From positions 1 through 64,000 of the IMG/VR virus record IMGVR_UViG_3300021197_000864: a stretch of 64,000 nt of DNA; one strand, 5' to 3'. Within the stretch, counting starts at the first letter, position 1; each line of letters opens with the position of its first letter. The notes beneath the pieces were generated by a model that saw only the letters and a list, made by a program, of their open reading frames with translations, ran no database searches and was not told the origin of the DNA. Of the stretch, positions 5,047-42,403 are shown in pieces. The translations under genes and the position numbers were made by a program. The stretch is from a virus.

Positions 5047-6777
5047 TCAAAACCTATCCACCATCCGTTCTAAACTTCTGTATGTCGCCTTTAGTCTATT
5101 AATTGTTCCTACATCTTTCAATTGGTATTCCCCCGTTGAACTATCTTTTTCTGATGATATTGTTTTTGACCCACCACGTTCTGTCATTCTTTTACCCCTA
5201 CGTTCAGGAGATAAAAATGTTTTATTAACATTAAAATTATACTCACTTAAATATTCTTTTGCTATTTCATCTATCTTTATTACAGGAAATACATTACTAG
5301 TCATTTTTAATCTACCTGCATCTGTAATTTCTTTTGTTCCAAGAGCATTTGAGCCATCTTCTTTTCTACCTGATACAATTCTTTTTTGTCTAGGTGTATT
5401 ATACCATGCTAAAAATTCTTGAGGTTCTTTATTTATAGCAGCATCAACAAAACTTGCCCCATATGTTTCTATAATATCTTCTAAAATATCTCTTTCAGAA
5501 CTTATATCAGTAACATCTTCATCTCCCTCATCGGACTCAATAATTAATCTATTTTGTTCATCAATTGATACAGAAGCATTTGCGTTATCTCTAATTGATT
5601 TTTCTGCTTCTAATACTTTTTTTCTATCTCTAGATGCCTCTACCAAATCTTTAGCAGTATCTTTCGCTTCACCACTACTATAATCACCAGTTATTGCTGC
5701 TATATCAGATTTATTTAATTTCATCTTTTTATATGTAATATCCAAACTACCTGTTTTTAATTTACCATTTTCAGGCTGAACAAAACTCATGATTGCATCT
5801 TTTATAGGATTAGTTACAGGTTTATTTAAATCTAAAGATATATCTTCCATAGTAAAAGATTCAAAATATGACTTTGCTTCTGCAAAATCTGTAAAACTTT
5901 TATCTTCTCCTAAACCGTAGAAAATATATTCATCATCACCATCTTCATTAACTTCTACACGCATTGCGTAAATAATACCTGATTTTCCTGTAACTTTTTT
6001 AGAATCCCGAATACCTCTTTCTTGTATATCTTTAGCATCAAATATAGTACCTACTTTTACCTTTACTGTTTTCTTAAATGATTTTCTTTTACCTGACTTT
6101 AAATTGCCTTTTCTATCCATTATCTTTGCATCTTTTAACATTTTTTCTATGTATTTTTCAGAATCAAATATAATACCGCTATTACCACTATTAACATAGT
6201 CACTTAGATTAGAACTCAACATAGGTTTTCCTGAAAGAAATGCATCTAATGTACTATTATCACTACCTTCTACTTCTAAAGTATAGTTGATAACTCTATC
6301 TACTTTGGCTTTATTCTCTAAATCTTTTACTTTAAATTTAATATCATCCATTCTTTTTTTAGTAATATCACTAAAAATAGTTGATTCATTTAAAAGATTT
6401 CTTTTCTTTAAATCATTAATCAAAGATATTAAATTTTGTTGTTGTATTACAGTTAGAAACCTATCCATATACATTCCATATGATTCATGAGAATAATATG
6501 GTCTATTTTCATTACTTAAATCAATTTCTGAACTATTAATATCTAAATTATCAAACTTTTTTTTATTTAATGTATCATAAACAAGGTCATCTAGATTATT
6601 CATTCTAGGATTATTAGGCTGTATTTCATGAAAAATATAAGTAACTAAATGCTCATATAATTTTACATTTTCCATAAGCCTAACATGACCATACGTTAAA
6701 TATGTAGGTTCTAATATAATGTCTGATTGAGTCGGGCTATTATCATCTTCAACAAATATTCGTTCTGCTTCTGCCAT
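5047..6777 (-). CDS. hypothetical protein (576 aa)
   Basis: Long ORF with GGTGA RBS; no recognisable motif. Confidence 0.75.
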   Translation of the reverse strand: MAEAERIFVEDDNSPTQSDIILEPTYLTYGHVRLMENVKLYEHLVTYIFHEIQPNNPRMNNLDDLVYDTLNKKKFDNLDINSSEIDLSNENRPYYSHESYGMYMDRFLTVIQQQNLISLINDLKKRNLLNESTIFSDITKKRMDDIKFKVKDLENKAKVDRVINYTLEVEGSDNSTLDAFLSGKPMLSSNLSDYVNSGNSGIIFDSEKYIEKMLKDAKIMDRKGNLKSGKRKSFKKTVKVKVGTIFDAKDIQERGIRDSKKVTGKSGIIYAMRVEVNEDGDDEYIFYGLGEDKSFTDFAEAKSYFESFTMEDISLDLNKPVTNPIKDAIMSFVQPENGKLKTGSLDITYKKMKLNKSDIAAITGDYSSGEAKDTAKDLVEASRDRKKVLEAEKSIRDNANASVSIDEQNRLIIESDEGDEDVTDISSERDILEDIIETYGASFVDAAINKEPQEFLAWYNTPRQKRIVSGRKEDGSNALGTKEITDAGRLKMTSNVFPVIKIDEIAKEYLSEYNFNVNKTFLSPERRGKRMTERGGSKTISSEKDSSTGEYQLKDVGTINRLKATYRSLERMVDRF

Positions 6778-35197: not shown

Positions 35198-35841
35198 CTC
35201 ATTTCATCTGCTAACTTGCTAAGTTCCTCATCAATAAACTCTGATTGTTTACCATCCACATGAAATAAAGTTTGAACATTACTACCTTCATTTAGTTTAT
35301 AATCAGACCATTCAGACCAAAATAACTGTAAACCTACCCACAAAACAATGATACCGATATCGTTCCTAATTTCAATGTCTTGTTGAATACCCGAGGTATT
35401 TCTTAGTTTAACTGCCATTATTCGATAGCCCGTTCCACCAACATTGTCCTCATCTTTGTATTTAAAATTAGCACCACTTAACATATCCAACAGTCTACAA
35501 AATACTTCTTCAGGTATGCTATTGAAGTCACCTTCTTTAGATATAGATGCTTCTCTCTTAACTACATTAACAGAAGCGTGAAGTTTTGCATTTAATTTTT
35601 TACCACCATAAGTAATTTCATTTCCATAATATGTGGTTTCTTTTTTAACCTTGACAAACTCTTGGCCTATTTCATTAGGGAATTGAAAATTCTCAGTAAA
35701 ATTAGCAATTTCCATAATTTTATCTTTACATCTAGTATCTTCTTCGTTCGGCTTTGGAGTATTGAACGGTTTAACTTTGAACTTAGGTAAATTAACCAAT
35801 TTGTTCTGTTTTATAACATTCCACCAATTACTCACGGCCAA
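35185..35841 (-). CDS. paralogue family member 1
   Basis: WWNVIKQ...NLPKFKVKPF...CKDK, IPEEVFC. Confidence 0.8.
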   Translation of the reverse strand: MAVSNWWNVIKQNKLVNLPKFKVKPFNTPKPNEEDTRCKDKIMEIANFTENFQFPNEIGQEFVKVKKETTYYGNEITYGGKKLNAKLHASVNVVKREASISKEGDFNSIPEEVFCRLLDMLSGANFKYKDEDNVGGTGYRIMAVKLRNTSGIQQDIEIRNDIGIIVLWVGLQLFWSEWSDYKLNEGSNVQTLFHVDGKQSEFIDEELSKLADEMRWPI

Positions 35842-36059
35842 ATCTCCCTACAAAATCAATTACCCAAATCGCCCAGTTAGGCAATATGTGAATGAAGGCG
35901 GCAGGTATCATACTTTAGCCTCTTCTATCCGGTTTAAAATGTTAACCCCGTAATTTGTCGAAAAATGGGCGGTCATTTTTTTACCACTTGCGATTTTTTT
36001 TATTTTTAAAACAATGCATTCCCGATATAAGATTGTACAGTTAGCACATTTTATAGTTC

Positions 36060-36108
36060 CTACAAATACCACAATTAGAATTTTGTTGCTACAAATACCA
36101 CAATTAGA
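36060..36108. repeat. 20-bp direct repeat x2
   Basis: ctacaaataccacaattaga at 36060 and 36089. Confidence 0.9.
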
Positions 36109-36291
36109 TTATGTCTGTATCTTTATGCAAGAGCGTTTTTTTATTCTATTATATTTATATTCCCTTCTATTTAATTAAATATAGTGCCTTTTGTACTAAA
36201 TAAGATAAAATTAATCACAGTAAAAAAATCTTTTTGATTGTTTTATAAAAAAAAATTTGAACCCTGCTACGCACCCATACCCCAATTACTA

Positions 36292-36330
36292 CCCATATGG
36301 TACGGTATAAAAAACGTACAACCATATGGT
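36292..36330. promoter_or_regulatory. two CCATATGG palindromes (copy with CTTTG flank at 36321)
   Basis: cccatatggt 36292-36301; accatatggt 36321-36330. Confidence 0.7.
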
Positions 36331-36371
36331 ATGCGCTTTGCCGCAGACCTCATAAAAATAAAGAAAAATCG

Positions 36372-36790
36372 GGTTAAGAGGTTAAACACACTTAATGAGA
36401 AGATAGTTTACCTACTGCCATGGTCTAGAGGTTTCTATCTTAACTAGTAAATGTTTTTGTTTAACATTAACCGTCTTTTCTTGGGCTGGTACTTGTACCG
36501 TTTTTAACTTACAGACCTTTGAATTTATAATAAGGCGGAACTGCTTTCATATCCTATTGTCCCTAAAGCACTCATGCATTAGTGGTTTACCTTTCGGTTA
36601 GGAACTCATAAACGTGGTTCAGTTTTAAGGAGTATCACCTCTTTGATACTCACACCTTATTCTTAATCTCTCTACTCTACCTAACTTCAGTGGCTTGAAC
36701 AGGGTTGCGTACCTATTAACAAACATTAGGCTTGAATCCACAAACAATCTAATCTAACCGTAAGCCGATTAAATCCCTCATGTATAATCA
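36372..36790. ncRNA. candidate structured RNA/UTR
   Basis: No credible ORF; stems 36372-36388/36458-36472 and gagtatca/tgatactc 36630-36651. Confidence 0.3.
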
Positions 36791-36804
36791 AGAGAACTCG
36801 AATC

Positions 36805-36996
36805 TTATATTCCACCTGCTGACTGATTACGATAAATTGTAATAGCCTTTCTAAACTTAGCAGGTTTAAAATTCTTATTTGTTTTTGTTAGTTTTTCAAT
36901 TATGATATCTACCTTATCAGGTGGTACATCTATTTCAACAATCATACATACTAACCATTCAAAATGTTTCTTTGTGAATAATGAATACATACTCAT
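36805..36996 (-). CDS. hypothetical protein
   Basis: TNKNFKPAKFRKA, GAGG RBS, coupled stop/start. Confidence 0.65.
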   Translation of the reverse strand: MSMYSLFTKKHFEWLVCMIVEIDVPPDKVDIIIEKLTKTNKNFKPAKFRKAITIYRNQSAGGI

Positions 36997-37139
36997 TGTA
37001 TTCGCCTCTCACCTAAATAGAAAGCCCCTCTATTTGGTACTACCAAATAGATTACTTGCCATATTTTTCCACCAATAACAACATAACCCAATGAGTTGTA
37101 TTCATATCTATTCCTACTCATAAAACTATAATCTCTCAT
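36993..37139 (-). CDS. hypothetical microprotein
   Basis: Start re-called at ATG 37139 behind GGAGG. Confidence 0.5.
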   Translation of the reverse strand: MRDYSFMSRNRYEYNSLGYVVIGGKIWQVIYLVVPNRGAFYLGERRIQ

Positions 37140-37140
37140 T

Positions 37141-37311
37141 TTAGTATTCCTCCGTATAAAAATCAAACCACATACCACGCTTACTCAAATCTGAACAAGT
37201 TGAACCACTTGTTTCAGGGTCTTGACAATGTGATTGTGCTTCTTCAAGAGTTAGTCCTGTTTTAATTGTTTTATTATTTCCTTCAAAGTAACTCCTTACT
37301 ACTTTATACAT
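37141..37311 (-). CDS. 56-aa protein (not in ORF track)
   Basis: MYKVVRSYF...GLTLEEAQSHCQDPETSGSTC...WFDFYTEEY. Confidence 0.65.
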   Translation of the reverse strand: MYKVVRSYFEGNNKTIKTGLTLEEAQSHCQDPETSGSTCSDLSKRGMWFDFYTEEY

Positions 37312-37478
37312 TATATCACATCCAAAGGTAGATTAACACCACAATTCTCATTTATACATATATACCAAACTGTTGACATTGGTTTTCTAGTGAACATATT
37401 AATATCACTTCTTTTGTATGTGCAATCATTTTCAATTGCTGAACCACATTCACCACATTTCATACTATATTCTAACAT
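37311..37478 (-). CDS. 55-aa Zn-ribbon microprotein
   Basis: CGECG...CINENCG; TAATG coupling. Confidence 0.6.
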   Translation of the reverse strand: MLEYSMKCGECGSAIENDCTYKRSDINMFTRKPMSTVWYICINENCGVNLPLDVI

Positions 37479-37480
37479 AC

Positions 37481-37552
37481 TTATTCCTCCTCATCATAAG
37501 GTTCATCTAAATATTCATGGTCATATGAAGTCATACTATCAGGATAAGGCAT
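37481..37552 (-). CDS. 23-aa acidic peptide
   Basis: MPYPDSMTSYDHEYLDEPYDEEE; GGTGAGG RBS, TAATG coupling. Confidence 0.45.
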   Translation of the reverse strand: MPYPDSMTSYDHEYLDEPYDEEE

Positions 37553-37653
37553 TATTCCTCACCCCTTTGTAATGATAGTGTAACTTCTTCGCCACATTTA
37601 CGACAATATAATTTATTTGCTGATATTATTTTACCACATATACATTCATTCAT
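37552..37653 (-). CDS. 33-aa Zn-finger micropeptide
   Basis: MNECICGKIISANKLYCRKCGEE; ATGA overlap. Confidence 0.5.
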   Translation of the reverse strand: MNECICGKIISANKLYCRKCGEEVTLSLQRGEE

Positions 37654-38645: not shown

Positions 38646-38692
38646 ATAGGGTATTTAACTGGTAGCAGTCAAAGCACTACCATATGGTTGTA
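38646..38692 (-). promoter_or_regulatory. palindrome-CTTTG-TATA promoter
   Basis: Minus strand: TACAACCATATGGT agtg CTTTG n11 TTAAATACCCTAT. Confidence 0.7.
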
Positions 38693-39367: not shown

Positions 39368-39492
39368 ATAGGGTACTTAAGGGTGTTCTCAAAGTACCAC
39401 ACCATATGGTTGTAATACATAATATTTCATTATACATTTAAATAAATACTACCATATGGTTCTACTTTGATAGAACCCTTTAATAAGCCCTA
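39368..39492. promoter_or_regulatory. divergent double promoter with two ACCATATGGT palindromes
   Basis: Palindromes 39401-39410 and 39451-39460, each followed outward by CTTTG and TTAAGTACCCTA / TTAATAAGCCCTA. Confidence 0.75.
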
Positions 39493-39550: not shown

Positions 39551-40024
39551 ATGGAAACATGGGAAGATACAAAAAAGAAAGTAGAAACAATGATAGCGGC
39601 AGATGATAGAGGTTCACTCGATGAAGGTCTAAAAGTTGTAGCCGTACAATTAATTGCAACAGGAGATAGTAAACCTGAGATGCAAGAACAAATGACTAAG
39701 ACTCTAAAAGAGGCTCTTAGAGGATGTCATGGATATCCTTGGAGAAGAGGTGGTGGAGGTATTCTTTCTGCTGCTGCTCTAAGTACAGTGGATGCAATAG
39801 TAGCAGATGTTGAAACAGCATTTGCAAATGCATTCGATTCTTGTATCGGTGTTCAAGCATTACTATTGCCTCACGGTAAGAGTAAGAATACTCATTTTGA
39901 AAATGGTGCAGATTATGCAAGCACACTCACAAAGACAATTCGTAAAAATGCAACTACGCTTTACAAAGCAGGTTGGGATGGTTCTCTAGATGGTCTAGGG
40001 ATTTCTTCACAGGAGGAAGAATAA
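39551..40024 (+). CDS. early protein, paralogue B
   Basis: QLIATGDSKPE, PWRRGGG, HGKS, WDG, SSQEEE; start likely ATG 39551. Confidence 0.8.
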   Translation: METWEDTKKKVETMIAADDRGSLDEGLKVVAVQLIATGDSKPEMQEQMTKTLKEALRGCHGYPWRRGGGGILSAAALSTVDAIVADVETAFANAFDSCIGVQALLLPHGKSKNTHFENGADYASTLTKTIRKNATTLYKAGWDGSLDGLGISSQEEE

Positions 40025-40053
40025 AACGGATTGACTCTTTGTGAGTACTAATT

Positions 40054-40098
40054 GGGGGAATAGGGCTTTAATGCCTTATTCCTCCTTTTTTTATTTTA
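40054..40098 (+). terminator. hairpin plus T-tract
   Basis: gggggaatagggc-tttaat-gccttattcctcc followed by tttttttatttt. Confidence 0.7.
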
Positions 40099-40112
40099 AG
40101 GTCTTAAACTGA

Positions 40113-40138
40113 CAAAGCGTTTAATACCATATGGTTGT
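40113..40138. promoter_or_regulatory. CAAAG...ACCATATGGTTGT element
   Basis: Palindrome 40126-40135. Confidence 0.7.
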
Positions 40139-40455
40139 GTATTGTTTTAAAATAGAGGCTGCCGAAACCCTTGACGGCATCCTTTATATACCCTCCTAGC
40201 CGACTTGATTTGTAGGAACTGACCAAACATCATTCGTGTACAAGAATAACCTAATTAATACTTAAAGCAGTATTATTCAAAGGATAAATATTTTACCACC
40301 AATATGACATCAGTTATTATTACTAATGATTAAAGAATCATTATTAATACAATATGTATTATTTGATAAAAATATCAGTATCTAGTATCCTATATAATAT
40401 AAGATAACTAAATAATATCTTACTCATTTTGATTAACATTCTTCCTTTTCACTTA

Positions 40456-40706
40456 AGTGGAAACGAGAGGTAGAACAAAATGAATAAGATATACAATATA
40501 TGTATATCATTATAATATACATTATCATTTACTACATTTACATACATACATACATACTTTTTTTCTCTCTCTCTTTATTTATTTCTCTCTCTATGAAAAA
40601 CAGTGGAAACGAGAGAAACGAATAAAGTAGAGCAAAGTGGTAAACATATACTAACATATGTATATCATTGTGTCATTTCCAACAAGTGTAAACGAGTGGA
40701 AACAAG
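40456..40706. repeat. AGTGGAAACGAG repeats in AT-rich tract (candidate origin)
   Basis: Copies at 40456, 40602, 40685, 40695; duplicated ATATGTATATCATT; (TACA)n and (CT)n runs. Confidence 0.6.
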
Positions 40707-40726
40707 AATAGCATTAAAAAAATAAC

Positions 40727-41155
40727 GTGATTAACATGGATAAAGAAATTAAAAGAACAAATGAAGAAGATAACAAAGAAAGGAAGATAACAATGTTTAG
40801 TGGAAAGAGTGATGTCAAATATACACCTCCACAAACAATGCAACAACCTTACACAAGAAAACCTCTTGAAGGTGTAGCACTATTAATACATGAGAAGTGT
40901 AATGATATCAAAGGAATGCTTATTGAAAAGAATGAGCAGTATGGAGATTCAGCATTGAATCCAATTAGAATATTTTCAACATCTAATACAGATGAACAAC
41001 TGCGAGTTAGGATAGATGATAAGTTAAGTCGTTTATCTCGCGGTAATGATTCATTAGAATCAGATGATGATATAATTAATGACCTAATAGGTTACTTAGT
41101 TTTATTATCAATACATAAAGACACTCACCCCATAAGTGGAGAAGTTGTGGAATAG
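40727..41155 (+). CDS. DUF1599/Nmad1-like all-alpha NTP pyrophosphohydrolase-fold protein
   Basis: KNEQYGDS...RIDDKLSRL...DLIGY. Confidence 0.7.
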   Translation: MINMDKEIKRTNEEDNKERKITMFSGKSDVKYTPPQTMQQPYTRKPLEGVALLIHEKCNDIKGMLIEKNEQYGDSALNPIRIFSTSNTDEQLRVRIDDKLSRLSRGNDSLESDDDIINDLIGYLVLLSIHKDTHPISGEVVE

Positions 41156-41183
41156 TCTTAGCGGGCTATCCTACAATACTTTA

Positions 41184-42131
41184 GGGTGTTACAAAAAGGG
41201 TTTAATCCAAATTAAAAAAGTAAAAAGATATAGTGGATGAGTGCTGTCAAGCATAAAAGTCGCTTGATGCTAATTCTAGATTAGCAAAGTAATTCAATAT
41301 AGAGTAGTAGGTTATCACAAGTATTATGCTTGTAATAGTCGGTCAGGTTTGTGTGAAAGCACTTGCTTTACTTGAAAGTTGTCATATTACCAAAACTTGT
41401 AAAACTAATATGTCTGTAATCTCAAACAGATAATCAGTAAGAATTGTTTCCGCTAGAGACAATGGTCTGCTGATGACTTACCCACGTGGTGACGGCATAG
41501 AACGGTTACTTTCCCTTTAACACTCAATAGTCAATGAAGACTTTAAAATAAAAATACTCTAGATTCGGTTTAGGGTAGAGGTTTATGCAGTAATTAGTTC
41601 AAAACATTGGTCGAGTCCATGTGTTTTTTATTGTAGTGACATGCTATTTGCATCTTGTGAACTCCCTCTACCCTCCGAATACTAATTACACTCAAACAAT
41701 TCTTGTCTTACTACCTTCGGGACTAGAACACAAGAATCATTATGAGTAGAGTTTACTGAAATAAAAAAGACAAATCGAGGTGGATTAGATTTCCACCCAA
41801 AGCAGTGATTAAATGACCTGCCCAATCTTGAAGTTTTGTTGATGCATTAATTTTCGAGTATCAGTAATGTGGTTTTCACCCATGTCTTTCTCTACTATTC
41901 ACACTCACGACTACTTATGTAGTTCACAATTAAGGTTTTATCTTAATAATAAAATCTTCTAGTTTCTCTTGCTTAGGGGTATATCATTCTTTTATGTGGT
42001 GTTTTGGAATGATAAGTGCGTCATGCGACCTCAGTTTATTAGAACTAGAAGATTTTCCCTTAGTTGAGAGTCGGGTTTGTCAGTTAATACATCGCGGGTA
42101 ACTGAGCAAGAGCCAAAAGATGTTCCCGACT
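41184..42131 (+). ncRNA. candidate large structured non-coding RNA(s)
   Basis: ~950 nt with no ORF >=60 aa and many long stems, cUUCGg loop, G-U pairs favouring + strand. Confidence 0.6.
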
Positions 42132-42145
42132 AATCACATTCCAAT

Positions 42146-42403
42146 ATGGAGATAATTAAAATGAAGATAGACTTAAGCGAAACAAAACCTGTATATGAAT
42201 TACACATTTGGTATGAATTAACACAATCACCATTAGGTGAGTTTGATGACTTTGAAAAGTTTGATGATAAAGACAAGGCGTTAGAAGCATATCACAAATT
42301 AGATTGTGCTTACAAGGTACTCATAGAGTATGCAGGTGATGATGGTGATGTGTTGTTGGAATACAGCCACTACACTGATGATGGTAGGGGTGATGACAAA
42401 TGA
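42146..42403 (+). CDS. acidic hypothetical protein
   Basis: ORF with coupled stop/start. Confidence 0.65.
   Translation: MEIIKMKIDLSETKPVYELHIWYELTQSPLGEFDDFEKFDDKDKALEAYHKLDCAYKVLIEYAGDDGDVLLEYSHYTDDGRGDDK

Follow-up and report, generated by a model that had tools for sequence, protein, structure and literature searches.

What is the role of a 990-nt stretch without genes (positions 41156-42145) in the genome of a virus whose relatives come from marine metagenomes? The stretch lies within the DNA analysed here (the window), the first 64,000 nucleotides of IMG/VR record IMGVR_UViG_3300021197_000864, which is a complete viral genome of 95.6 kb with 32% G+C. It separates a gene for a protein of 142 aa from an open reading frame (ORF) of 85 aa. 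Inspection of the letters alone (the sequence-only reading) had proposed that most of it is a new large non-coding RNA or an RNA array. Both terms are apt. The stretch is composed of five homologous structured RNA modules, paralogues on the + strand, of which one is large (~400 nt, module A) and four are small (modules B to E), and the first appears to belong to a family of RNAs of 340–420 nt, supported by covariation, with members in more than 20 related contigs, both viral and metagenomic.

That the locus is a genuine array of structured RNAs seems to us highly probable. The fuller reading that we favour, with a probability of about 0.62, is that the array consists of five paralogous non-coding RNAs of one undescribed family, transcribed together from the + strand, which act as folded molecules and neither encode protein nor serve as DNA signals. 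The checks suggested together with the sequence-only reading point the same way: a scan of Rfam with Infernal gave no family match, homologues show covariation both in the compact units and in the large RNAs, the stretch folds better than its shuffles, and contigs from marine RNA libraries overlie part of it (module A). What that reading had missed is that the domains are paralogues, that the compact ones contain a pseudoknot, that the large RNA starts ~60 nt earlier (at ~41122) and that tRNA genes are interleaved with the units in relatives.

Coding potential and folding

The ORFs in the stretch, which had been described as ORF-free, are of just 31–47 aa. None is intact in a relative that is 74% identical over the whole stretch (L006), where they are interrupted by stops or frameshifts, and a coding reading was rejected because no ORF is conserved. 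The + strand of the 990 nt folds at -255.2 kcal/mol (z -3.5) with none of 20 shuffles as good, in agreement with the extensive pairing noted earlier; the - strand gives -228 kcal/mol (z -2.5). The six stems singled out by the sequence-only reading (41184-41200/41513-41525, 41268-41286, 41563-41581/41665-41680, 41699-41706/41730-41737, 41951-41964/42043-42056 and 42069-42075/42125-42131) are all present. They are the closing or internal helices of discrete modules, and for each the corresponding helix shows conservation or covariation among related viral contigs. The preference of G-U pairs for the + strand is also seen: ~16 of the 100 predicted pairs of module A are G-U in most rows, and 41 compact units contain 19 G-U against 11 A-C.

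Modules were folded singly up to a limit of 150 nt. Module B has a minimum free energy (MFE) z of -4.6 and module E one of -1.8. Module D reaches -37.5 kcal/mol on the + strand (z -3.55), and its - strand has a similar z (-3.53) but just -26.7 kcal/mol. The z of -0.9 for module C was obtained on 41750-41897, without most of its outer helix, and a nested fold cannot represent its pseudoknot.

The clasp shared by all five modules

The modules share an arrangement of their two ends which we call the clasp. In all five, the 5′ strand of a first helix (P1) ends in G; UUU and an A-rich strand (RAAUAAAAA) come next. The 3′ strand of another helix, P3, passes without a gap to that of P1, and the two helices can therefore stack. 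In the compact modules the UUU together with a variable segment pairs, as helix P2, with a segment inside P3. P2 therefore crosses P3 and creates a pseudoknot. The clasp is constant and the cargo which it encloses ranges from ~35 nt (module E) to ~300 nt (module A).

In full, a compact unit reads P1, UUU, variable segment, A-rich strand, P3 5′ strand, variable hairpins, P2 3′ strand, a hairpin, P3 3′ strand and P1 3′ strand. P1 takes forms such as GAGYAGAG/CUCURCU, ACUGGG/CCCAGU and GCGG/CCGC, and the UUU which follows it is invariant. The late hairpin often carries the loop UGUGGYG and the tail is often AUUACAYUC.

This compact motif, first recognised from module C, recurs in many related contigs. 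Its units were described by two covariance models defined in this analysis, R1 and R2. In 16 units, 89.7% of cells are paired as against 42–52% when the partners are slid; in P2 the paired fraction is 92%, and each of the five scored pairs is changed on both sides. In 41 units the figures are 91.6% against 38–55%, 16 of 19 pairs are changed on both sides and none of 500 shuffles reaches the score; this larger alignment was fitted to R1, which favours the structure, whereas the 16-unit count was not fitted. Complementary P2 segments occur in most of the 41 units, where a per-sequence shuffle is not significant (mean best helix 6.85 vs 5.97 nt), so the support for P2 comes from its covariation in the 16 units.

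When both strands of 20 kb were searched with filters off, the three best R2 matches were modules C, B and E, all on the + strand inside the stretch, and R1 ranked them alike. Module C scores 86.5 bits with R1 (E 2.4e-18) and 68.4 bits with R2 (E 1.7e-12). Module B is second with both models, in scans of 7.5 kb and 20 kb (R1 E 0.019, R2 E 9e-4), and module E is third (R1 E 0.16, R2 E 0.053). The 5′ signature G-UUU-N-AWUAAAA has 12 matches in the window, among them modules A (at 41200), C and D (at 41935), the expectation being ~0.05 per kb per strand.

The large RNA

Past the stop codon of the 142-aa gene, relatives have ACACUC, next a hairpin with a CUUAGCGG loop and then an RNA of 340–420 nt with the same clasp. 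Eleven of their large RNAs show the order ACACUC, CUUAGCGG-loop hairpin, P1, and the stems covary. RNAalifold predicts 47 pairs in these, 25 of which are changed on both sides, and 94.2% of cells are paired against 43–50% with slid partners; the 11 form a homogeneous set, the 5′ halves of different subgroups being misaligned by MAFFT. Their P3 covaries (AACGAG/CUCGUU, GAAGG/CCUUC, AAGGAU/AUCCUU). With nhmmer the large RNA is found in more than 20 contigs.

The large RNAs of these relatives also contain a hairpin of the form GCUNN[palindromic tetramer + UAUAAAA...]NNAGC followed by AGG. An exact-pattern scan for it yielded 15 new viral contigs, and a metagenome scan 51 contigs, of which 3 are apparently chance matches. 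In all true large RNAs, from viral and metagenome contigs alike, the loop tetramer is GCGC, CCGG or UCGA, on at least three different stems. Since all three tetramers are palindromic, a symmetric loop-loop contact between two copies can be envisaged, and the large RNA of the relatives probably pairs with itself through this loop.

The corresponding elements can be followed in the window. The 5′ domain of module A (41122-41183, + strand, as are all features of the array) starts with ACACUC (41122-41127) within the end of the 142-aa gene and contains the loop motif UCUUAGCGGGC (41156-41166); CUUAGCGGG at 41157 is the counterpart of the CUUAGCGG-loop hairpin of relatives. Further upstream, a TATA-like TTTTATTAT (41100-41108) may be a promoter. 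The core (41184-41525) is closed by a helix (41184-41200/41513-41525), also predicted by RNAalifold, which comprises an outer part (41184-41191/41518-41525) and P1 (41196-41200/41513-41517). The UUU (41201-41203) and A-rich strand (41209-41220) follow, then a candidate P3 (AAGUAA 41218-41223/UUACUU 41507-41512), a long-range helix (GUGGAUGAGU 41233-41242/ACUUACCCAC 41479-41488) with a compensatory change in L006, an internal hairpin (41268-41286) and the conserved GGCAUAGAAC (41496-41505), which is the counterpart of the loop GCAYAGNA of other large RNAs. When module A of five close relatives was folded with RNAalifold, 100 pairs were predicted; many are G-U, and 7 show compensatory changes. 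Such a change is also seen in a local hairpin (GGUGACG/CGGUUACU) that would compete with the candidate P3, which makes the P3 of the window copy tentative.

Module A thus presents the elements of the large RNA in the same order: ACACUC, a CUUAGCGG-type hairpin, P1/UUU/A-rich strand/P3, a long-range helix of the UAGGG/CCCUA type, the GCAYAGNA loop, P3′ and P1′. An nhmmer profile of the large RNAs of relatives matches the window at 41485-41527 (E 0.004), and the 5′ part gives E 0.1–0.2 in L006 and L027. Together these features suggest that module A is a divergent member of the large-RNA family, albeit with a weak match in sequence (E 0.004).

The compact modules

Module B (41563-41696) is closed by P1 (41563-41581/41665-41680; core GGGUAGAGG/CCUCUACCC), followed by UUU (41582-41584), and has a P2 formed by AUGCA (41585-41589) and UGCAU (41649-41653). 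Its tail, AAUUACACUCAA, extends to 41696. In relatives the stem is kept and the interior is variable.

A stand-alone hairpin with a UUCG loop (41699-41737; stem 41699-41706/41730-41737) stands between modules B and C. Its homologue in L002 (~5650-5690) lies inside the variable loop of module C, where a change from G-C to U-A keeps the stem; the hairpin looks like a movable stem-loop cassette.

Module C (41744-41907) is canonical. It comprises P1 (GAGUAGAG 41744-41751/CUCUACU 41890-41896), UUU (41752-41754), the crossing helix P2 (UUACUGA 41753-41759/UCAGUAA 41861-41867), an A-rich strand (41759-41769), P3 (AAAGAC 41766-41771/GUCUUU 41884-41889) and a tail (AUUCACACUCA 41897-41907).

Module D (41928-42065) is divergent. 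It consists of P1 (AAUUAAGG 41928-41935/CCUUAGUU 42058-42065), UUUU (41936-41939), an A-rich strand (41943-41954) and a P3 of 14 bp (41951-41964/42043-42056), and its MFE fold contains exactly this P1 and P3. In L006, P1 of module D is kept and perfectly paired, and P3 is entirely different in sequence yet pairs. Its membership in the family follows mainly from this architecture, the R2 match being partial (41928-41954, E 3.6).

Module E (42068-42142) is a minimal unit with P1 (AGUCGGG 42069-42075/CCCGACU 42125-42131), UUU (42076-42078), a P2-like helix (GUCAGUU 42079-42085/AACUGA 42100-42105) and the tail AAUCACAUUCC (42132-42142), beyond which come the Shine-Dalgarno (SD) sequence GGAG (42148) and an ATG (42161). 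It is kept in distant contigs (L025, L026, L028), immediately upstream of the next gene.

Occurrence in RNA libraries

Fourteen marine runs recorded as RNA contain part of the stretch. Contigs from four RNA studies, at least 99% identical to it, cover module A alone (41191-41431, 41193-41507, 41124-41497 and 41284-41515); contig X3 begins at 41124. Modules B to E are without cover in the contigs of the four RNA runs, and contigs cannot show absence. The small size of two of these libraries (only ~10 million letters) suggests that the RNA is abundant. We take these contigs as a hint that the RNA accumulates in seawater transcriptomes.

Relatives of the array

Even near-identical genomes differ by the gain, loss or exchange of modules. 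Among relatives 90–97% identical, module C is missing from three (L003, L004, L027), where its deletion has fused the tails of B and C, which are alike, and module B is replaced in another (L002). In L026, a distant contig with 57% identity in the neighbouring protein, module C is 90% identical. Arrays of 2–5 units occur in L018, L033, L035 and L036. The six genomes that were scanned whole each have one clasp locus, and nearly all clasp matches are on the gene strand.

In L033, L035 and L018, genes for tRNA-Lys(UUU) and tRNA-Leu(UAA) lie 5–10 nt from the units on the same strand. These arrays begin 14 nt past the upstream stop codon, too close for promoters of their own.

The clasp family is small in IMG/VR. 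An exact-pattern scan for the compact 5′ motif gave 7 new viral contigs. In cellular genomes the 5′ motif pattern has at least 120 matches in unrelated taxa, and in 80 of these at least 120 loci, those which were scored with R1, the matches are weak (E >= 0.007) and give no pointer to a host.

Other elements accompany the units of relatives. A second conserved RNA motif of ~90 nt (AUCAGACGGGAGAAUACGG ... CCGUUCCAUUGC ... CCGUAUGCAUAAUUGGUGUUUCUGAU) is located between the clasp units of several (L002 ~5446-5548; L006 ~5510-5600; L018 1549-1645; L052 3971-4055) and is absent from the window. It displays a compensatory change (ACGGGA/UCCCGU vs ACGGAA/UUCCGU) and has no Rfam match in L018. A manA RNA (RF01745, 83 bits) is present in relative L055 (1126-1331, - strand), a motif previously described from marine metagenomes and cyanophages (PMC2864571). 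The first gene after the array often encodes a small Cys-rich Zn-ribbon-like protein starting MKMTRRCEY..DGHKCN or MKCKECNN (L008, L010, L012, L018, L033, L035). Such proteins are possible RNA- or DNA-binding partners.

Genomic setting

The suggestion of an archaeal virus agrees with the matches of the portal protein, which are confined to tailed viruses of archaea: the haloviruses HCTV-5 and HVTV-1 (28–29% identity, E 6e-52) and also viruses of Methanomassiliicoccales. The host would be an archaeon such as Marine Group II/Poseidoniales. A paper on magroviruses mentions virus tRNAs and no RNA of the kind found in the array (PMC5434244).

Upstream of the gene-free stretch, the 142-aa gene (40727-41155) belongs to PHROG 1485, with no assigned function. 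Downstream, the 85-aa ORF is listed at 42146-42403 and its probable true start is the ATG at 42161, after the SD sequence; a pyrimidine-dimer-glycosylase-like gene is next. This ORF is an insertion peculiar to the window genome, and in close relatives module E directly precedes the glycosylase-like gene.

No tRNA gene was detected in the window by ARAGORN or Rfam RF00005, nor was any in the whole 95.6-kb genome, and neither tool recognised a tmRNA or a tRNA cloverleaf in the window. The same tools detect the tRNAs adjoining the units of L018, L033 and L035. With no tRNA found by ARAGORN and no Rfam family matched, the earlier remark that the stretch does not resemble tRNA or rRNA stands. A repeat search and Tandem Repeats Finder revealed no iterons and no tandem or near-identical direct repeats in the stretch, and blastn of the stretch against 50,697 records of cultured phages returned zero matches.

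Several other features of the region were observed. The palindrome ACCATATGGT occurs five times between genes of the divergent early region (36317-36331, 38678-38692, 39400-39413, 39450-39463, 40125-40138) and probably serves an early regulator as operator. Two divergent early genes (189 aa on the - strand, 185 aa on the + strand) lie between the arms of an inverted repeat of 23 nt (38776-38798/40003-40025; 96% complementarity). Two more stretches of the window lack an ORF of at least 70 aa (35841-37650 and 40024-40727). The covariance models found no convincing clasp unit in either; the best candidate, on the - strand at 35949-36017, has an E of 0.4 and a badly paired P1.

Function and competing explanations

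If the modules do act as folded RNAs, the array would share a transcript with the early genes on either side, perhaps one starting at ~41124, and its modules would be excised or would persist as stable RNAs, like the neighbouring tRNAs in relatives. The clasp would tie both RNA ends into a compact knot, defining and protecting them, and the large member would be the main functional RNA. The role which we would put first, while regarding it as tentative, is that of a stable structural RNA, self-associating or protein-binding, by analogy with ROOL and GOLLD. A more detailed version is rather doubtful: the largest member (~400 nt) might self-assemble through its palindromic kissing loop into an RNA-only dimer or particle, the modular clasp would lock a variable cargo, and the small paralogues and the tRNAs would be freed from the same early transcript. 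A bolder variant would make the clasp a new catalytic core, self-cleaving or RNase P-like.

Several observations weigh against the picture of a family of folded RNAs with these roles. Modules A and D have no full-length match to R1 or R2, only partial ones at E 3.6–8.8, and their assignment to the family draws on shared motifs, element order and weak nhmmer matches (E 0.004 to 0.2). Neither the window nor its close relatives contain the hairpin pattern with a palindromic tetramer, so that self-pairing is transferred here from other relatives, in which the tetramer has just three variants (GCGC, CCGG, UCGA). Module A of the window does carry other palindromes in loops (CUAG at 41276, CACGUG at 41485), with no variation there to compare. 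The window virus is without a tRNA gene, and a role of clasp RNAs tied to viral tRNAs cannot therefore be general. A cis-acting leader would likewise fit the position of the last module, always right against a ribosome-binding site. Lastly, the expression evidence consists of assembled contigs, which give no strand and no true ends and may reflect DNA carry-over.

Of the rivals, which rank as cis-acting leaders, processing marks or ribozymes, a DNA-level element and chance, the first is unlikely in our view. The modules would be regulators in the 5′ untranslated regions of downstream early genes: riboswitches, translational operators, antiterminators or stabilisers of the mRNA 5′ end. All units are indeed co-oriented with genes, the last one always ends 4–25 nt ahead of the SD sequence of a + strand gene, and single units lie immediately 5′ of genes in L052, L058, L061, L064 and L008. 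A leader does not, however, account for up to five or six tandem units, some of which precede tRNA genes and not ORFs, or for their restriction to one locus per genome. The downstream genes vary (pyrimidine-dimer glycosylase-like, the 142-aa gene, Zn-ribbon genes and others), neither a terminator nor SD-sequestering pairing is seen after P1, and the RNA-library contigs overlie module A and not a leader plus gene.

The idea that the modules are new self-cleaving ribozymes, or tRNA-like punctuation for RNase P or tRNase Z which frees tRNAs and mRNAs, we rate slightly lower. It takes its strength from the tight interleaving of units with tRNA genes in relatives, from the invariant nucleotides of the family (G-UUU and the A run) and from topology: P1 on P3 with a continuous 3′ strand may resemble an acceptor/T-arm minihelix, and the strand order is that of the RNase P P1-P2-P4 core, a lead considered below. 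Two RNA contigs also start at 41191 and 41193, at the foot of P1 of module A, but contig ends are not RNA ends. The combined length of P1 and P3 varies from ~10 to 22 bp, as opposed to the fixed 12 bp of tRNA, no ribozyme or RNase P match was obtained from Rfam even at E 10 on short inputs, and the window virus has no tRNA gene.

A DNA-level element is improbable, whether a replication origin, a promoter array or a recombination hot spot with protein-binding, cruciform or single-stranded inverted repeats. The array does lie ~2 kb from the point of gene divergence and the turn of the cumulative GC skew, it contains A/T-rich boxes and inverted repeats, and unit borders act as recombination points, as in the deletion between the tails of B and C in L003, L004 and L027. 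A protein-binding site would not be expected to behave like P2, P3 and the hairpins, which differ wholly in sequence between units yet remain paired. Moreover, G-U pairs and fold energy favour one strand, iterons and tandem repeats are lacking, the orientation relative to genes and tRNAs is fixed, and RNA-library contigs cover part of the stretch.

That the stretch is a non-functional spacer or a set of decayed genes (including tRNA genes) that folds well by chance in an AT-rich genome is very improbable: the - strand also beats its shuffles (z -2.5) and unit content differs even among genomes 90–97% identical, but the covariation contradicts this explanation, since compensatory changes in the motif extend across contigs whose neighbouring proteins share just 45–60% identity.

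Comparison with known RNAs

The RNAs of the array had been called undescribed, and Rfam 15 holds no family that matches them, GOLLD, ROOL and RNase P included. None of these three was matched at the gathering threshold in the 64 kb, at E up to 10 on inputs of 1.5 kb and 0.38 kb, or in the relatives, and scans with lax filters on short inputs gave chance-level matches only (RT-14, snoRNAs, RsaA). The covariance models of GOLLD, ROOL, OLE and raiA are unmatched in the window and in the relatives, as are the Rfam models of known self-cleaving ribozymes (hammerhead, twister, twister-sister, pistol, hatchet and HDV-like). Full-text searches of a library of papers retrieved no description of a clasp RNA or of a comparable RNA of an archaeal virus.

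Several known types of element were considered and rejected: a riboswitch (tandem units, one locus per genome, varied downstream genes or tRNAs, no terminator or SD-sequestering helix), a miniature inverted-repeat transposable element or transposon (one locus, one orientation, internal covariation), and the antitoxin RNA of a type III toxin-antitoxin system or a CRISPR array (no near-identical short direct repeats in the stretch). The ToxI RNAs of type III systems resemble the array as tandem pseudoknot-forming units in a phage-related context. ToxI is made of near-identical repeats of 34–45 nt accompanied by a toxin gene, whereas the array has units of 65–400 nt with unrelated interiors and no toxin-like neighbour.

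The core of RNase P RNA has a characteristic P1-P2-P4 strand order and carries the sequence ACAGAA. The clasp has the same order of strands (P1, P2, A-rich joiner, P4, P2′, P4′, P1′), with the 3′ strand of P4 leading into P1, and the loop GCAYAGNA of the large RNA occupies the position of ACAGAA; we treat both resemblances as leads only. The units differ in their length of 65–170 nt, and conserved regions CR-I and CR-V are not recognised by eye. Membership in RNase P was rejected, with no model match at E up to 10 (window 41170-41550, L057 4300-4640); topology alone is alike.

Bacteriophage T4 produces small stable RNAs, species 1 and 2 (RNA C and D), which are made from the same early-region transcript as tRNAs and freed by processing. 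Compared by description only, the array differs in that the window genome is without a tRNA gene and that the clasp units are pseudoknotted, unlike tRNA.

To our knowledge, large RNAs that are supported by covariation and lack a known function are rare, and those known (GOLLD, ROOL, OLE, raiA) are bacterial. It is ROOL and GOLLD which the array most invites comparison with. These are virus-encoded RNAs of several hundred nt, rich in pseudoknots and often located beside or among tRNA genes. They self-assemble by RNA-RNA contacts into nanocages (bioRxiv 10.1101/2024.12.08.627333). The array matches these traits in its RNA of 340–420 nt, in the tRNA genes interleaved in relatives and in a palindromic loop suggestive of self-pairing. 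It differs in having no match in sequence or structure, in belonging to archaeal-type marine viruses as opposed to bacteria, in the tandem small paralogues which share only the clasp with the large RNA, and in that multimerisation is here a conjecture.

The array is therefore a candidate counterpart, in archaeal-type viruses, of the large ornate RNAs of phages, and would add a new family of 340–420-nt RNAs in an abundant group of ocean viruses. Its small paralogues are naturally minimised forms which isolate the conserved core of the large RNA, and the structural prediction is clear: a pseudoknotted clasp at the ends and a palindromic kissing loop. The clasp could supply a compact natural scaffold for RNA stabilisation, and a second, independent lineage could help to approach the role of the giant phage RNAs near tRNA islands.

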